A stretch of 59,777 nt of DNA from Candidatus Falkowbacteria bacterium (GTDB lineage: Bacteria; Patescibacteriota; Patescibacteriia; Patescibacteriales; VMTK01). Made by a program: the position numbers and the translations under genes. This document shows positions 13,361 to 21,610 of this stretch, in pieces (position 1 is the first letter of the stretch; each line of letters opens with the position of its first letter). The notes under the pieces are model-generated. The model saw only the letters and a program-made list of their open reading frames with translations. It was not told the DNA's origin and ran no database searches. Location of the stretch: contig VMTK01000061.1 of NCBI GenBank assembly GCA_013791585.1, positions 1-59,777 on the forward strand, written 5' to 3'.

Positions 13361-13521
13361 CAGACTGTCTAAAAACTGCTTTTACCGACTTTTAAGTCGG
13401 GTTTTGAAGCTTTAGCTTCACTAATGTTAGTGGCTAAAGCCACTGGAACCCGAGCTTCAGCCAAAGGATGATCAGCCTCTGGAGGAAAAGCTCGGTAGAA
13501 GGGTGCTTTTGGAACAGTCTG
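13361..13521. repeat. nested multi-hairpin palindromic element, copy B1 (long form)
   Basis: The core 13379-13501 is bounded by cttttaccg and cggtagaag. Internal hairpins are cgacttttaagtcg, gaagctttagcttc, gtggctaaagccac and gagcttcagcc...ggaggaaaagctc. An outer stem pairs cagactgt with acagtctg. Confidence 0.8.
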
Positions 13522-13531
13522 AAATAAAAAA

Positions 13532-14629
13532 TCAACCCATCCCAACAACAACATTCTCCAAAACCAATTTCGGATTAACATTAAATTTTAAATATTCCTT
13601 GGCCTGCTTTAAATTCTTGGCTAAATTTATTAAATCGCTTATTTCAAAATCTTTTTTTATAACTTCCAAATCATCCATTATAACCGCGTGCTGAATTAAA
13701 TTCTTTTGGCCGAATTCAAGCAATAACAAATCCCTGGCAATGCCTTCCCAGATTTCTATTATTCCGCCGGCCAAACTTGCCGATTCTTGGCCGGATGGCC
13801 GAGGGCCTATCAAGCTTTCAACTATGGACAAGCGGCTGTTGATATCATTCCGGGCCAGACGCAGAAAAGATTTGGCTTGCTCAAGATAATTATTCAAGAA
13901 CTCTTTGTCTCGCAAAAATTTAACGGCCAGCGCCGGCCTGCCAAGGCATAAATGCGATAAATTTTTAGCCGCGCTTCTTCCGGCTCCATGCTCATTGATT
14001 AAATAATCGTAAATAATATCCGCGCTTACCGGATTGAATTTTAATATTTGGCTGCGCGAAACAATTGTTTTCGGCAAAGCGCTTGTATCTGTAACAGTTA
14101 AAATTACCGCCACTTTGGCTTTTGATTCTTCCAGAGTTTTCAAAAGCGCGTTTGCCGCCTCTATGCTCAAGCTTGCCGCATTTTTGATTATGCCTATCTT
14201 GTAGCTGTCCATGAAAGAAGCCATATTCAATATCCTGATAAATTCCCTAACCTGCTCAATGGAAATATTTTTCTTGTCTTCCTGCTTTGTTATAACATGG
14301 ACATCCCCGTGCAAGCCCTTTTCCAGCTGAACGCATGGCGAGCATTGGCCGCAGGGCAGACTGCCTCCCTTTCCTGATAATTGTTTACAAATCAAACTCT
14401 TGGTAAAATAATTAGCTATAGTAAATTTGCCTATATCATCCGGTCCGGAAAAAATATAACTGCTTGAAACATTATCATTCTCAATGCTTTTTGATAAAAA
14501 ATCAATAATATGGCTGTTGCCGGCCAACGGCCAGTTGAATGTGAATTTCTTGCCTTTCATGTATAACATTATAGCAAAACTATCCCAAACAATCAAACAA
14601 AAAAATAAGGGTTGTGTTTTAAAAAACAC
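13532..14629 (-). CDS. holB: DNA polymerase III delta' subunit
   Basis: AAA+-like YIFSGPDDIGKFTIANYF, zinc module CGQCSPC and HGDVHVI. The probable true start is near 14560 (MKGKKF). Confidence 0.8.
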   Translation of the reverse strand: MFFKTQPLFFCLIVWDSFAIMLYMKGKKFTFNWPLAGNSHIIDFLSKSIENDNVSSSYIFSGPDDIGKFTIANYFTKSLICKQLSGKGGSLPCGQCSPCVQLEKGLHGDVHVITKQEDKKNISIEQVREFIRILNMASFMDSYKIGIIKNAASLSIEAANALLKTLEESKAKVAVILTVTDTSALPKTIVSRSQILKFNPVSADIIYDYLINEHGAGRSAAKNLSHLCLGRPALAVKFLRDKEFLNNYLEQAKSFLRLARNDINSRLSIVESLIGPRPSGQESASLAGGIIEIWEGIARDLLLLEFGQKNLIQHAVIMDDLEVIKKDFEISDLINLAKNLKQAKEYLKFNVNPKLVLENVVVGMG

Positions 14630-14658
14630 AACCCTGTATAAAAATTTAATTATTTTCC

Positions 14659-15606
14659 CTAGCTCTCTATAATTTTAAATCCATTAAAAATTGCGTCGCA
14701 AATAAAATCCTCCAGAGAGGTAAAATCGTTTTTGAGCTGGCTTTTTCTTAAATAGTTTAAATATAATCTTTTTTCTTGAATTCTAATGACTGCCGGGGGT
14801 AGATTATTAAGAAGAAGCATAGCAGTAAGTATTAAGCGCCCTATACGGCCGTTACCATCAGAAAAAGGATGAATCTGCTCAAATTTACTATGAATTACTG
14901 CCGCATGCTTAATTATATCAACTTGTTTTTTGTTAATTTCTTTAACAAGAGCAGCCATTAATTCTGAAATTTTTAGATAATTAGCCGTGGGGACATTTGA
15001 ACCAACTATTCTTACGCCATGGCGCCTGTGTCGTCCCGCATCTTCCCTGATTCCGCTCATCAGCAAGCTATGCAATTTGAGAATCAGATTTTCGTTAATT
15101 TTACCTGTCTTTAAATAATCAAATAAAAACTTTATAGCTGTCTGATGATTCTTTGCCTCTAAGTGTTCAATCAGATCTTTGTTGTTTATTGTTTCATTGC
15201 GAAAAATAACTGCCGCAGTTTCATCTTCGGTTAAAGTGCTTCCCTCTATGCGGTTAGTATTATAGGTCAAAGACAAAATAAGTTGATCGTATAAATCAGT
15301 TCTATCAAGGATTAAGTTCAACATATTTTTTTGTTTTTTGGCTTTTTTATGAATTATATCTTTTTTATTCATTACATCTTTTCCAACGCTTTCAGATACT
15401 GGAATACCTGTATATTTTGATAATAGCTTATCTATTAATTCTGTCTTACTTTTATGAGGTTTTGATTTGTTGTTTATCCAGCTGTTAAGCGTAGCAAAAG
15501 ACACGCCCAAATCTTTGGCCATGTTCTCCTGAGTAAAGCCGGATAACCTTTTTATCATTTTTAGTTTTTCTGAAACATTCATATTTTTGCTATTTATAAT
15601 ATACAT
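14659..15606 (-). CDS. Fic-domain protein with N-terminal XRE-type HTH
   Basis: The HTH is LSGFTQENMAKDLGVSFATLNSWINNK. The Fic motif is HPFSDGNGRIGRL. Confidence 0.85.
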   Translation of the reverse strand: MYIINSKNMNVSEKLKMIKRLSGFTQENMAKDLGVSFATLNSWINNKSKPHKSKTELIDKLLSKYTGIPVSESVGKDVMNKKDIIHKKAKKQKNMLNLILDRTDLYDQLILSLTYNTNRIEGSTLTEDETAAVIFRNETINNKDLIEHLEAKNHQTAIKFLFDYLKTGKINENLILKLHSLLMSGIREDAGRHRRHGVRIVGSNVPTANYLKISELMAALVKEINKKQVDIIKHAAVIHSKFEQIHPFSDGNGRIGRLILTAMLLLNNLPPAVIRIQEKRLYLNYLRKSQLKNDFTSLEDFICDAIFNGFKIIES

Positions 15607-15834
15607 TATCCATTTTACAAAACTTTATAAAATTTGTCAATATGCGATACTTTATAAAGTTTACTTAATTTAATATTTTTCATCTCTAAAAAGCATTACT
15701 GAATACTGCTTAATTATAACTAAAATACTGCCCTCTTGCTTTATTGTTGATCTTTAATATAACCCTTGAATTTTCCCTATAAATCCGCTAAACTAAAAAC
15801 AAAAGAGAATTAAAATCTAGAATTTCAACTTTTA

Positions 15835-15895
15835 CCTCTCACGCCTTTGCTTCGCTAAGACACCCTCTCCTAATTAGGAGAGGGACGGGGTGAGG
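15835..15895 (+). promoter_or_regulatory. structured 5' leader: nested hairpin that can sequester the GGTGAGG RBS-like purine tract
   Basis: The inner perfect 8-bp hairpin is ccctctcc-taatta-ggagaggg (15863-15884). The outer pairing is cctctcacgcc (15835-15845) with ggggtgagg (15887-15895). Confidence 0.3.
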
Positions 15896-21268: not shown

Positions 21269-21314
21269 TAGTTCTCTAACCTCGAAGAATTTAATGAATT
21301 AATAAAATAATATA

Positions 21315-21412
21315 AGCTATTACCAACTCGTTCTGGCTTATTTCTGAATTTTATCAGAAATTCACAGCTGCGGGACAGCGGAGGATTTTCACCTCGCTTC
21401 GGAAAGTAATAG
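21315..21412 (-). promoter_or_regulatory. cobalamin riboswitch-like aptamer (compact form)
   Basis: Minus strand reads GCUAUUAC-UUUCCGAAGCGAGGUGAAAAUCCUCCGCUGUCCCGCAGCUGUGA-AUUUCUGAUAAAAUUCAGAAAU-AAGCCAGAACGAGUUG-GUAAUAGC. It shows P1 closure, a conserved core and a B12-box-like AGCCAGAA. Confidence 0.7.
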
Positions 21413-21427
21413 CAATTGATTTATGAT

Positions 21428-21456
21428 TATTATATTCTAAAAATTTAAAATAGGCA
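21428..21456 (-). promoter_or_regulatory. sigma70-type promoter TTGCCT-17-TATAAT upstream of the riboswitch
   Basis: The reverse complement of 21451-21456 is TTGCCT. A 17-nt spacer follows. The reverse complement of 21428-21433 is TATAAT. Confidence 0.6.
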
Positions 21457-21486
21457 AGGGTTTATAAAGGATCTACTGATTGTTAG

Positions 21487-21610
21487 CTTCTACCGAGTTT
21501 TTCCTCCGGAGGCGGATCATCCTTTGGCTGAAACTCGGGTTTGTGAAGCTTTAGCTTCACTAAACTCGGCGGTTAAAACCGCCGAAACCCGACTTAAAAG
21601 TCGGTAGAAG
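21487..21610. repeat. nested multi-hairpin palindromic element, copy B4 (long form, same orientation as B2)
   Basis: The terminal repeats are cttctaccg and cggtagaag. The long hairpin is gagtttttcctccggaggcggatcatcctttggctgaaactc. Further hairpins are gtgaagctttagcttcac, ggcggttaaaaccgcc and cgacttaaaagtcg. It shares the 3' flank ttttttccgccaca with B2. Confidence 0.8.

Follow-up and report, generated by a model that had tools for sequence, protein, structure and literature searches.

Palindromic repeats of a Candidatus Falkowbacteria contig as probable REPIN-like elements of a RAYT system in Patescibacteria

What are the multi-hairpin palindromes that recur between the genes of this Candidatus Falkowbacteria contig? 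In the stretch analyzed here (59,777 nt of contig VMTK01000061.1, hereafter the window), an earlier note had described four copies and offered several readings of them: MITE-like mobile palindromes, bidirectional terminator or mRNA-stabiliser modules, or a structured small RNA family. Our analysis makes it very probable that the repeats are non-autonomous REPIN-like elements of a REP/RAYT system widespread in Patescibacteria (CPR). They are most likely a new lineage within the known REP/REPIN class, and not a new kind of RNA.

Four copies, two per orientation, do lie at the places given in the note (Table 1; the GACTTTTAAGTC hairpin is read first by convention, which puts copies 1 and 3 on the plus strand and copies 2 and 4 on the minus strand). 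All four are recovered by a covariance model (81-110 bits, E 1e-19 to 1e-27), which detects no fifth copy in the window, and the density is four in ~69 kb of the window's contig. Two ranges had been drawn too wide: 13361-13521 contains copy 1 but takes in a separate outer inverted repeat, and the range extended to 19266 contains copy 3 but includes an unrelated 28-nt palindrome. Pairwise inverted matches between copies span 91 nt at 92% and 83 nt at 90%. The motif CTTCTACCG, with at most one mismatch, occurs 17 times in the window versus 4.6 expected, and none of 100 shuffles reaches that number.

The ends of the elements in the window are (C/T)TTCTACCG and CGGTAGAA(G). The shared bounding ends that had been proposed hold as the core TTCTACCG...CGGTAGAA, which is invariant across the family; the left ends of copies 1 and 3 are corrected to CTTTTACCG (one mismatch to the consensus) and TTTCTACCG, respectively. 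Each copy contains four short hairpins; those of the left half have C-TTTA-G loops, those of the right half C-TAAA-G loops. The order of the middle hairpins is indeed swapped, the GAAGC hairpin taking second place in copies 1 and 2 but third place in copies 3 and 4, and the longer arm of copies 1 and 4 is a 30-nt insert. We also find the spurious-ORF peptide ALATN(F/I)SEAKASKPDLKVG and the flank TTTTTTCCGCCACA common to copies 2 and 4. All four copies are intergenic, in two tandem gaps, one convergent gap, and one divergent gap, which agrees with the siting described before. Copy 4 lies ~30 nt upstream of a promoter-like site at 21457-21429 on the minus strand.

Table 1. Repeat features located in the window, with their surroundings
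Feature	Position	Strand	Covariance model	Context
REPIN-like copy 1, long variant, 123 nt	13379-13501	+	90.1 bits, E 6.6e-22	BNR-repeat gene 12239-13348(-) / holB 13532-14629(-)
REPIN-like copy 2, canonical 93-nt form	17297-17389	-	110.5 bits, E 1.3e-27	Convergent gap, sugar transferase gene 15906-17270(+) / DUF6580 gene 17420-18001(-)
REPIN-like copy 3, 94 nt	19145-19238	+	100.8 bits	Within cobalamin-riboswitch operon, genes 18612-19112(-) / 19274-21268(-)
REPIN-like copy 4, long variant, 124 nt	21487-21610	-	81 bits	Divergent gap, riboswitch-led operon / HTH_17 gene 21781-22029(+)
Outer inverted repeat, left arm CAGACTGTCTAAAAA	13361-13375	+		Encloses copy 1
Outer inverted repeat, right arm TTTTGGAACAGTCTG	13507-13521	-		
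30-nt mini-palindrome TCAGCCAAAGGATGATCAGCCTCTGGAGGA	13457-13486	+		In loop of last hairpin of copy 1
30-nt mini-palindrome	21502-21531	-		In loop of last hairpin of copy 4
28-nt perfect palindrome TTAGCTTGGGTTTTAAAACCCAAGCTAA	19239-19266	.		Own repeat family, outside the REPIN-like element
Flank TTTTTTCCGCCACA, family D13	17393-17406	+		Beside copy 2
Flank TTTTTTCCGCCACA, family D13	21616-21629	+		Beside copy 4

Several smaller repeats accompany the elements. The outer inverted repeat surrounds some copies; the loci analyzed contain 40 of its half-sites, most of them 3-5 nt beyond the REPIN ends, and its arms also wrap other content (L128, 3830-3960). GCGGAAA and TTTCCGC motifs, related to the flank TTTTTTCCGCCACA, adjoin the outer repeat in other loci. 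The 28-nt palindrome has an identical copy elsewhere (L053, 3273) and a compensated variant (L086, 2583). A search at E ≤ 1 gives a weak match of the Rfam family Acido-Lenti-1 over this palindrome, below threshold (30.9 vs. 37 bits), which reaches into copy 3 over ~21 nt at its end (19218-19238) and lies mostly on the neighboring palindrome. The 30-nt unit, TCAGCC...GGAGGA, recurs unchanged in hairpin loops of further copies (L008 and L017), and it also stands alone, without a REPIN (L036, 4641; L101, 3402; L106, 4482). In heterocyst-forming cyanobacteria, Elhai and colleagues reportedly described small dispersed repeats that nest in each other, with very small palindromic units (20-30 nt) sitting inside other repeats. 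The 30-nt unit behaves alike, although the phylum is another and the sequences are unrelated. We know of no mobilizing enzyme assigned to either.

The family extends well beyond the window. An exact 26-mer is found in 10 genome contigs and a degenerate terminus in 23 contigs from genomes and 83 from metagenomes, giving 129 non-overlapping hits, or 112 distinct insertions, in Patescibacteria MAGs and metagenomes. The modal element is 93 nt long. Full doublets make up 94 of the 129 hits, and the singlets and halves are mostly beside RAYT genes. Nearly all classifiable insertions (52 out of 56) are intergenic; one copy (L002/L065) lies within a PMT_2 ORF. Many copies sit just past a stop codon. 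The elements are not an artefact of assembly, since the same sequence containing them is present in independent assemblies (GCA_018900375.1, GCA_018899735.1, GCA_018899775.1, ERZ27247111, and ERZ27247124) and in several SRA runs.

Other genomes connect the element with a transposase gene. In relatives, a gene for an HUH/Tyr protein of ~190 aa lies between the two halves of the element, which form inverted repeats on either side of it. At L078 this gene (699-1277, minus strand) lies between TTCTACCGAGCTTTAGCTCGGGTT and AACCCGAGCTAAAGCTCGGTAGAA, and the homologues at L035, L070, L105, and L013 are flanked by the arms in the same way: five out of five loci on element-bearing contigs. Across 35 loci from many CPR lineages, we detect the left arm at 25, the right arm at 28, and both at 22, with a crude detector, several of whose misses are tag variants visible by eye. 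Tag variants (GGTGGAA, GGTAAAA, and GGTATAA) resemble GTRG-type degeneracy with reversed polarity.

The protein has the invariant motifs NHYH and Y...GNLLKH. All 30 sampled members match the NCBIfam model REP_Tyr_transpos (REP-associated tyrosine transposase; best E 1.1e-12, below cut-off) and Pfam Y1_Tnp, and six of them match the NCBIfam IS200 model. The query scores lie under the curated cut-offs (34.6 vs. 80 bits for NCBIfam, 19.6 vs. 23 bits for Pfam). A profile search of PDB sequences gave no match, so homology rests on motifs and on the predicted fold. The AF2 model (pLDDT 90) has as its top Foldseek match 4ER8_A (E 7.5e-8), which is E. coli TnpA-REP bound to a REP hairpin, followed by the ISDra2, IS608, and IS200 TnpA proteins. 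Neither the window nor ~9.4 kb upstream on the same contig contains a RAYT homologue, so the dependence of the present copies on a RAYT in this genome is assumed. JAZDKT01 has more of this exact subfamily than any other MAG, and a peptide-pattern scan of it also found no RAYT; with an incomplete MAG and strict patterns, this negative weighs little.

The REP-RAYT-REP unit could instead be an ordinary selfish insertion sequence (IS) of the IS200/IS605 superfamily that still transposes whole, the 93-nt elements being its gene-less, PATE/MITE-like derivatives. We consider this improbable. Some MAGs do have two or three RAYT loci (L109, L112, and L136 in QIIF01; L107 and L116 in CAWFCE01), so the unit could be a multicopy IS and not a domesticated RAYT. 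However, the two CAWFCE01 loci have differing REP variants, as is the case for multiple RAYT/REPIN pairs per genome. Likewise, 25 of the 35 loci lie outside the position between pheS and pheT, and L013/L136 is a frameshifted pseudogene, both in keeping with a selfish IS; against this, the order pheS-RAYT-pheT is found at 10 distinct loci in different CPR lineages, which points to vertical inheritance or to a fixed site. The system shares with IS200/IS605 elements (IS608, ISDra2) and the PATE derivatives a Y1 HUH fold, subterminal hairpins of the kind recognized as single-stranded DNA, the absence of target duplication, and miniature derivatives consisting of ends only. Yet TnpA-REP remains the best structural match, and the RAYT model outperforms the IS200 model (30/30 vs. 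6/30). The ends of IS200/IS605 elements, moreover, are asymmetric and not inverted repeats, with both hairpins on one strand, whereas the CPR ends are inverted, tag and hairpin included, and enclose a single ORF, with no tnpB partner and no space for one.

The structure of the elements bears on the second alternative. Each arm consists of 5'-TTCTACC(G), a hairpin with a C-TTYA-G loop, GGGTT, and a second hairpin with the same loop, and the right arm repeats this on the other strand; a single arm folds into two hairpins with a free 5' CTTCTA. The stems differ between copies while pairing is retained, as had been noticed in the window, and in the structural alignment they covary: 98.0% of the cells are paired, compared with 84.5% in shuffles, and 21 of the 31 pairs have changes on both sides (522 cells), which none of 500 shuffles reaches. 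Slid controls pair at 28%-49%.

Covariation this strong, together with very stable folds (z down to -9), would also be expected of a structured RNA, be it a small RNA, a regulatory RNA acting in cis, or a module for termination or mRNA stabilization, whose fold is under selection. The copies are intergenic, many of them right after a stop codon, one subfamily has A-runs and T-runs beside the element by way of the outer repeat, and effects of REPs elsewhere on mRNA stability and termination are reported (PMC3733652). We nevertheless judge an RNA as the primary nature of these repeats, which the earlier note had entertained, to be very unlikely. The element has dyad symmetry: the covariance model matches either strand, both strands fold equally well (z -7.7 to -9.1), and the mirrored loops (TTTA left, TAAA right) are those expected of a doubled DNA site, not of a single RNA. 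A strand test of G:T against A:C does not discriminate (18 versus 7 cells, or 12 versus 7 distinct hairpins). The elements show no preferred orientation relative to flanking genes (20 same, 24 opposite), a 580-nt gene splits the halves in the RAYT loci, and copies 2-4 have no T-run straight after the outer stem. No Rfam 15 family reaches its gathering score over the elements, the sole such match in the whole window being the cobalamin riboswitch at 21308-21446 on the minus strand, and the one weak match to an element falls mostly on the neighboring palindrome. The compensatory stem changes are best read as selection for single-stranded DNA hairpins recognized by a transposase, and not as evidence for an RNA.

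Signs of mobility are several. Orthologous sites are filled in one genome and empty in another (L083 vs. L003; L094, L082, and L021 vs. the window at 23180-23234); the empty-site genomes are only 70%-80% identical, and exact insertion boundaries are thus undefined. There are nested and partial copies (L034, L063, L040, L018, and L087) and recombined flanks (L088/L044/L001), and assemblies break within copies, five Logan contigs stopping in copy 2 at 17326. We find no target-site duplication beyond chance: a flanking direct repeat of at least 2 nt is absent from 63 of 71 insertions, and the distribution equals that of shuffled flanks. The suggestion of MITE-like mobile palindromes is thereby supported and sharpened, to a dispersed, polymorphic, nested repeat without target-site duplication, and because in other genomes a RAYT-like HUH tyrosine transposase gene lies between its halves, it is of REPIN type and not a DDE-type MITE.

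Bacterial MITEs of the latter type (Correia/NEMIS, RUP, ERIC, and the Rickettsia palindromic elements) are ~100-150 nt long, have terminal inverted repeats, spread through intergenic DNA, create duplications of the target site, and descend from DDE insertion sequences. The CPR element is like them in size, terminal inverted repeats, intergenic spread, and occasional in-frame siting within genes (here, the PMT_2 ORF) and unlike them in its lack of duplication and in its HUH/Y1 partner. That our repeats are deletion derivatives of a DDE-transposase IS has next to no probability: CTTCTACCG and CGGTAGAAG, the ends, do count formally as terminal inverted repeats, and the outer repeat CAGACTGTCCAAAAA, which surrounds many copies and other content, could belong to such an element, but the only gene found between such ends encodes the HUH/Y1 protein, not a DDE transposase, and conservation is in hairpin loops and structure and not in a linear terminal repeat.

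If the repeats are REPIN-like, the 93-nt element would correspond to a REP-RAYT-REP unit minus its gene. By analogy with E. coli TnpA-REP and the TnpA proteins of IS608 and ISDra2, a RAYT encoded elsewhere in the genome would recognize the arm hairpins as single-stranded DNA, reading loop and tag by sequence and the stem by shape, which would account for invariant loops and tags beside covarying stems. Its tyrosine may then cut beside the TTCTAC/GTAGAA tag, and the doublet would be copied or moved to other single-stranded sites without target duplication. The window copies would be passengers of intergenic DNA, with any effect on transcription secondary. A role as terminator or mRNA stabiliser would be a side effect at most.

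How closely does this correspond to known REP systems? In the literature (PMC5581495, PMC6006769, PMC3733652), REPINs, which are REP doublets, are the mobilized unit and RAYT genes lie between inverted REPs; two of these sources (PMC6006769, PMC3733652) describe the classical REP as a hairpin with a conserved tetranucleotide, GTAG/GTRG, 5' of its foot. RAYTs are present at about one copy per genome and are vertically inherited (PMC5581495). The CPR system resembles the REP/REPIN-RAYT systems of Enterobacteria and Pseudomonas (the REPINs of Bertels and Rainey, the RAYTs of Nunvar) in its extragenic palindromes with a conserved tag at the hairpin foot, its inverted doublets, its many dispersed copies with compensatory stem changes and sub-families, its Y1 HUH gene between inverted units, its lack of target duplication, and a predicted fold nearest to TnpA-REP. 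In contrast to them, it is found in CPR hosts with genomes of ~1 Mb or less, its gene lies between pheS and pheT at ten loci, and its protein has diverged far enough to score below cut-off with curated models. A separate 30-nt mini-palindrome in a hairpin loop and the outer inverted repeat around some copies also set it apart. Classical REPs are one imperfect palindrome, whereas the CPR arm has two hairpins with an invariant C-TTYA-G loop. The inner hairpins of the doublet, unlike those of classical REPINs, are not mutually complementary, so the doublet can fold as a multi-branched structure besides a rod. Finally, the tag 5'-TTCTAC(C) precedes the hairpin, so that on the other strand GTAG(AA) comes 3' of it; with this reversed polarity, the element falls outside the GTAG and CGTC super-families as defined.

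A bolder version of the REPIN-like reading, which we hold to be rather doubtful, is that the CPR REP/RAYT system is domesticated, ancient, and vertically inherited, with a RAYT in the pheS-pheT operon across many Patescibacteria lineages, a reversed-tag, two-hairpin REP, and REPINs, able to fold as a branched junction, kept for a cellular job in these minimal genomes. They might insulate or terminate transcription where genes are tightly packed, or give structure to the DNA. If this were true, REPINs would be long-term intragenomic partners far beyond the Proteobacteria.

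All four places in the window for which the earlier note had claimed related palindromic elements do contain them, and the copies are a real feature, beyond chance. A repeat finder returned inverted matches among them of 91 nt at 92% and 83 nt at 90%, and the 9-mer CTTCTACCG (at most one mismatch) occurs 17 times compared with 4.6 expected. Under a covariance model built later, copies 1-4 score 81-110 bits, and the window yields no fifth copy. The common left end described earlier holds in kind, with one mismatch in each of copies 1 and 3. The ranges first proposed for copies 1 and 3 do hold elements but take in, respectively, a separate outer inverted repeat and an unrelated 28-nt palindrome (for revised positions, see the table). 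The peptide said to be common to the spurious ORFs of the copies is real. Several independent assemblies hold the same DNA with the elements; the copies are therefore not an assembly artefact, a concern that the earlier note had raised. Five short-read contigs end within copy 2 and two begin within copy 1, which is the usual effect of a multicopy repeat on an assembler.

Palindromic elements and other features located in the window
Feature	Position	Length	Strand	Sequence or context
Copy 1	13379-13501	123 nt	+	strand as read with the GACTTTTAAGTC hairpin first
Copy 2	17297-17389	93 nt	-	strand as read with the GACTTTTAAGTC hairpin first
Copy 3	19145-19238	94 nt	+	strand as read with the GACTTTTAAGTC hairpin first
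Copy 4	21487-21610	124 nt	-	strand as read with the GACTTTTAAGTC hairpin first
Mini-palindrome	13457-13486 and 21502-21531	30 nt		TCAGCCAGAGGCTGATCCGCCTCTGGAGGA
Perfect palindrome	19239-19266	28 nt		TTAGCTTGGGTTTTAAAACCCAAGCTAA; adjoins copy 3
GTTAAC-containing octamers	575-640, 9994-10095, 12120-12246			GTTAACGA/GTTAACCC; intergenic, inverted arrays
Tandem octamers	6245-6300, 6988-7103			(TGTTTTCG)n; within SecA coding sequence, ORF 6148-9090(-)
AT-only tandem repeat	18498-18650			~20 copies of an 8-9-nt unit (ATTATTTT); between two riboswitch-operon genes
Cobalamin riboswitch	21308-21446			leads the operon
Riboswitch-led operon	17420-21446		-	

Copy 3 lies between genes 1 and 2 of the riboswitch-led operon and copy 4 about 30 nt upstream of a promoter-like site; effects of the copies on transcription are possible. 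The operon encodes proteins of 664 aa (prenyltransferase-like/DUF4430), 166 aa (unknown), 150 aa (DUF4430), and 193 aa (DUF6580), a plausible set for B12 capture or uptake by a CPR bacterium. G+C is ~0.39 in window positions 1-27000, the part with all four REPINs, versus ~0.31 in 27001-59777.

Copies beyond the window, for which the earlier note had suggested a search, were found by nhmmer across all fetched DNA: 129 non-overlapping hits represent 112 distinct insertions. Their distinct sequences number 98, and the modal element length is 93 nt. Among representative genomes, 10 contigs contain the exact 26-mer taken from one end and 23 the degenerate terminus, mostly from Candidatus Falkowbacteria MAGs (one MAG accounts for 14 contigs); the few single contigs in otherwise-labelled bins are probably mis-binned. 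The degenerate terminus was present in 83 further contigs in a metagenome scan. Viral contigs scanned with the terminus pattern gave no matches, and there is therefore no sign of phage carriage. Both the genes and the elements of the window are nearest to Falkowbacteria/Patescibacteria material.

The left half of the canonical 93-nt form consists of CTTCTACCG, an A/GCTTTAGC-type hairpin, CGGGTT, and a second hairpin; after a spacer, the right half runs through a hairpin, AACCCG, and a further hairpin to CGGTAGAAG. The ends TTCTACCG and CGGTAGAA are invariant in 62 distinct copies, as are the loop letters. The left two hairpins have C-TTTA-G loops (rarely TTCA) and the right two C-TAAA-G loops (rarely TGAA). 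The right half thus repeats the left half on the other strand, which gives the element a dyad-symmetric architecture. A single arm (the tag TTCTACC(G) plus two hairpins) folds alone into its two hairpins with a free 5′ CTTCTA ahead. Stems vary freely, GAAGC, GAGGC, GGCGGC, CGCGGC, GGATGC, and GCAAGC being among the versions seen. The CCG/CGG triplets at the four-way branch permit two pairing registers, and a rod fold of the entire element is also possible.

In relatives, arms also stand as inverted repeats on both sides of a gene. Locus L078, which was among the partial hits, consists of TTCTACCGAGCTTTAGCTCGGGTT, a 192-aa ORF, and AACCCGAGCTAAAGCTCGGTAGAA. The ORF carries HUH (NHYH) and Y-x3-N-x2-K-H motifs and matches Pfam Y1_Tnp (E 1e-3) and the NCBIfam REP-associated tyrosine transposase (E 1.6e-8), with both scores under the curated cut-offs. 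Four further homologues in element-bearing contigs have the same flanks, with a minimal or a two-hairpin arm. The protein family comprises at least 204 clusters at 90% identity; those with a named source are mostly labelled Patescibacteria/CPR, and a few are automatically annotated as transposase or RayT. Across a 30-member alignment there is no variation in the HUH histidines, the tyrosine, or GNLLKH, and the RAYT model is matched by all 30 members (best E 1.1e-12), the IS200 model by six. A PDB sequence-profile search with the protein alignment gave noise only (MsrA, E 0.17) and reached no solved structure, so homology had to come from the fold. The best structural match of a high-confidence AlphaFold model of a family protein (pLDDT 90, pTM 0.85) is 4ER8_A, the E. 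coli REP-associated tyrosine transposase with a REP hairpin (E 7.5e-8; target-normalised TM 0.62), followed by ISDra2, IS608, and IS200 TnpA.

A scan of representative genomes located 32 loci in Parcubacteria, Falkowbacteria, Moranbacteria, Magasanikbacteria, Jacksonbacteria, and others. Over 35 RAYT-like loci in all, a crude arm detector found the left arm at 25, the right at 28, and both at 22, and the interval between arms holds the RAYT-like gene only. Across lineages the stems change, and the C-TTYA-G loop and TTCYACC tag are kept. At ten distinct loci from different CPR lineages (L107, L113, L114, L119, L120, L124, L127, L136/L013, L035, and L078), the gene has pheS on one side and pheT on the other, in some cases together with a Nif3-like gene. 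Where both neighbours are present, it shares the strand of pheS/pheT; at L078 only the Nif3-like neighbour was mapped. Neither RAYT nor pheS nor pheT was found in the window (tblastn and hmmsearch, six frames) or in the ~9.4 kb of its contig that lie upstream. The REP-RAYT-REP unit may be either a selfish insertion sequence of the IS200/IS605 superfamily or a domesticated RAYT. The first, as the less probable reading, would suit the several loci per MAG and the varied genomic contexts; the second is favoured by inverted ends, the presence of one ORF only, the better fit to the RAYT model, and the pheS-RAYT-pheT position common to the ten loci.

The local hairpins are supported by covariation. 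In a model-guided alignment of 126 distinct rows, which is structure-fitted and has both strands of most elements among its rows, 98.0% of cells are paired compared with 84.5% in shuffles. Changes on both sides are present at 21 out of 31 pairs (522 cells), a level reached by none of 500 shuffles, and sliding the partner lowers pairing to 28-49%. A strand-asymmetry test of G:T versus A:C, as a discriminator of RNA and DNA, had few mismatches to draw on, 98% of pairs being Watson-Crick. The earlier note had offered a structured RNA family as one reading of such stems. This is disfavoured: The element is symmetrical, both strands fold and score equally, the insertions show no preferred orientation towards neighbouring genes (20 same, 24 opposite), the halves can be split around a gene, and no Rfam family lies over the elements either at gathering score or at E ≤ 1.

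Further observations bear on the reading as mobile REPIN-type palindromes. The large majority of classifiable insertions (52 out of 56) are intergenic, and 63 out of 71 insertions lack a target-site duplication, as with shuffled flanks. The sole signal in a target-motif search is Y at -1 and R at +1, lengthening the terminal stem by one pair. A DDE-type MITE is disfavoured, since there are no target duplications beyond chance and no DDE gene was found between matching ends. Integron attC sites and CRISPR-like or TIGR-like arrays were dropped on layout alone, the copies being solitary, non-tandem, and in both orientations.

The insertions are polymorphic. An element upstream of a tRNA gene in L083 is missing from L003, and the one or two copies downstream of gmd in L094, L082, and L021 are missing from the window (23180-23234); these genomes are only 70-80% identical, so the exact boundaries are not readable. 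A junction search among the fetched loci gave no clean empty sites, only diverged orthologues. Some elements are inserted within degenerate older copies (L034, L063, and L040), and others have duplicated partial ends (L018, L087, and L009). Among L088, L044, and L001, one locus joins the left flank of the second to the right flank of the third, which indicates recombination between copies. In a strain variant (SRR6516019), the 227-nt segment with copy 1 (window 13305-13531) is replaced by a 1.58-kb segment (L151 1107-2684) that codes for an AAA_14/DUF4143 ATPase. At L002 (2467-2559) and L065 (2897-2989), a REPIN with outer repeat lies in frame within a 647-aa ORF whose Pfam PMT_2 match ends just before the element, either a tolerated intragenic insertion or a disrupted gene.

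Several other repeats are nested in the elements or adjoin them. The longer arm that had been noticed in copies 1 and 4 is confirmed and consists of a 30-nt mini-palindrome, with modules TCAGCC-AGAGGC-TGATCC-GCCTCTGG-AGGA, in the tetraloop of the terminal hairpin. In L008 it occupies the corresponding loop of the other arm, and it occurs alone in AT-rich intergenic DNA (L036 4641, L101 3402, and L106 4482). This marks it as a small element in its own right that is nested in the REPIN, and it appears to be a very small insertion element without a known mobilising enzyme. The outer inverted repeat CAGACTGTCCAAAAA...TTTTTGGACAGTCTG surrounds copy 1, lies 3-5 nt from many copies, and encloses other content at L128 and L096. 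The swap of inner hairpins between copy pairs is equivalent to the central segment being inverted while the terminal hairpins stay in place. Copies 2 and 4 also have a flank in common.

The 28-nt palindrome beside copy 3 is itself a dispersed repeat, identical at L053 3273 and present as a compensated variant (GGAT/ATCC) at L086 2583. In L086 it has a T-run before and an A-run after it; its L053 flanks are AT-rich without such runs. A weak, sub-threshold match to Rfam Acido-Lenti-1 overlaps it. The GTTAAC-containing octamers form another palindromic family, also found in L053, L084, and L018. The octamers within the SecA gene are translated into HENTKT(R/Q)K-type repeats, which occupy two sites towards the C-terminal end of the protein. 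AT-rich 8-mers (AAATTCAA)n similar to the AT-only repeat of the window lie next to REPINs in L100, L058, L089, and L013.

A family of REPIN-type mobile palindromes belonging to a CPR REP/RAYT system is very probably the best explanation of the observed architecture, covariation, symmetry, link to a RAYT-like gene, lack of target duplication, and polymorphism. The analogy of TnpA-REP and IS608/ISDra2 suggests that the RAYT recognises the hairpins of the arms as single-stranded DNA, with loop and tag read by their sequence and the stem by its shape; its tyrosine would cut next to the tag, and the doublet would be moved or copied into other single-stranded sites. The window copies would need a RAYT encoded at another place in the genome.

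The elements would work like the REP/REPIN-RAYT system as it is defined in PMC5581495, PMC6006769, and PMC3733652, with which they share a Y1 enzyme, a gene between inverted units, doublets outside genes, compensatory sub-families, and the lack of target duplication. However, the REPs described in PMC6006769 and PMC3733652 have GTAG (or CGTC) 5′ of the hairpin foot, whereas the 5′ tag here is TTCTAC(C), which places GTAG 3′ of the hairpin. Also unlike the classical system, each arm carries two hairpins that share one invariant loop, the elements reside in CPR bacteria, and the protein is distant from the curated models. Literature searches in full text found no paper linking REP, REPIN, or RAYT with CPR/Patescibacteria. 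Work on REP/REPIN-RAYT has been almost wholly on Proteobacteria.

This is not a new class of element, and it is of note to those who work on mobile DNA and CPR genomics. Loop and tag stay invariant as the stems vary freely, which gives a clean candidate recognition code for a diverged HUH enzyme. The elements break short-read assemblies, create spurious ORFs, and could pass for RNA genes. They mark points of strain-to-strain rearrangement, and in CPR genomes, which are tiny and streamlined, a persistent population of structured repeats is unexpected.
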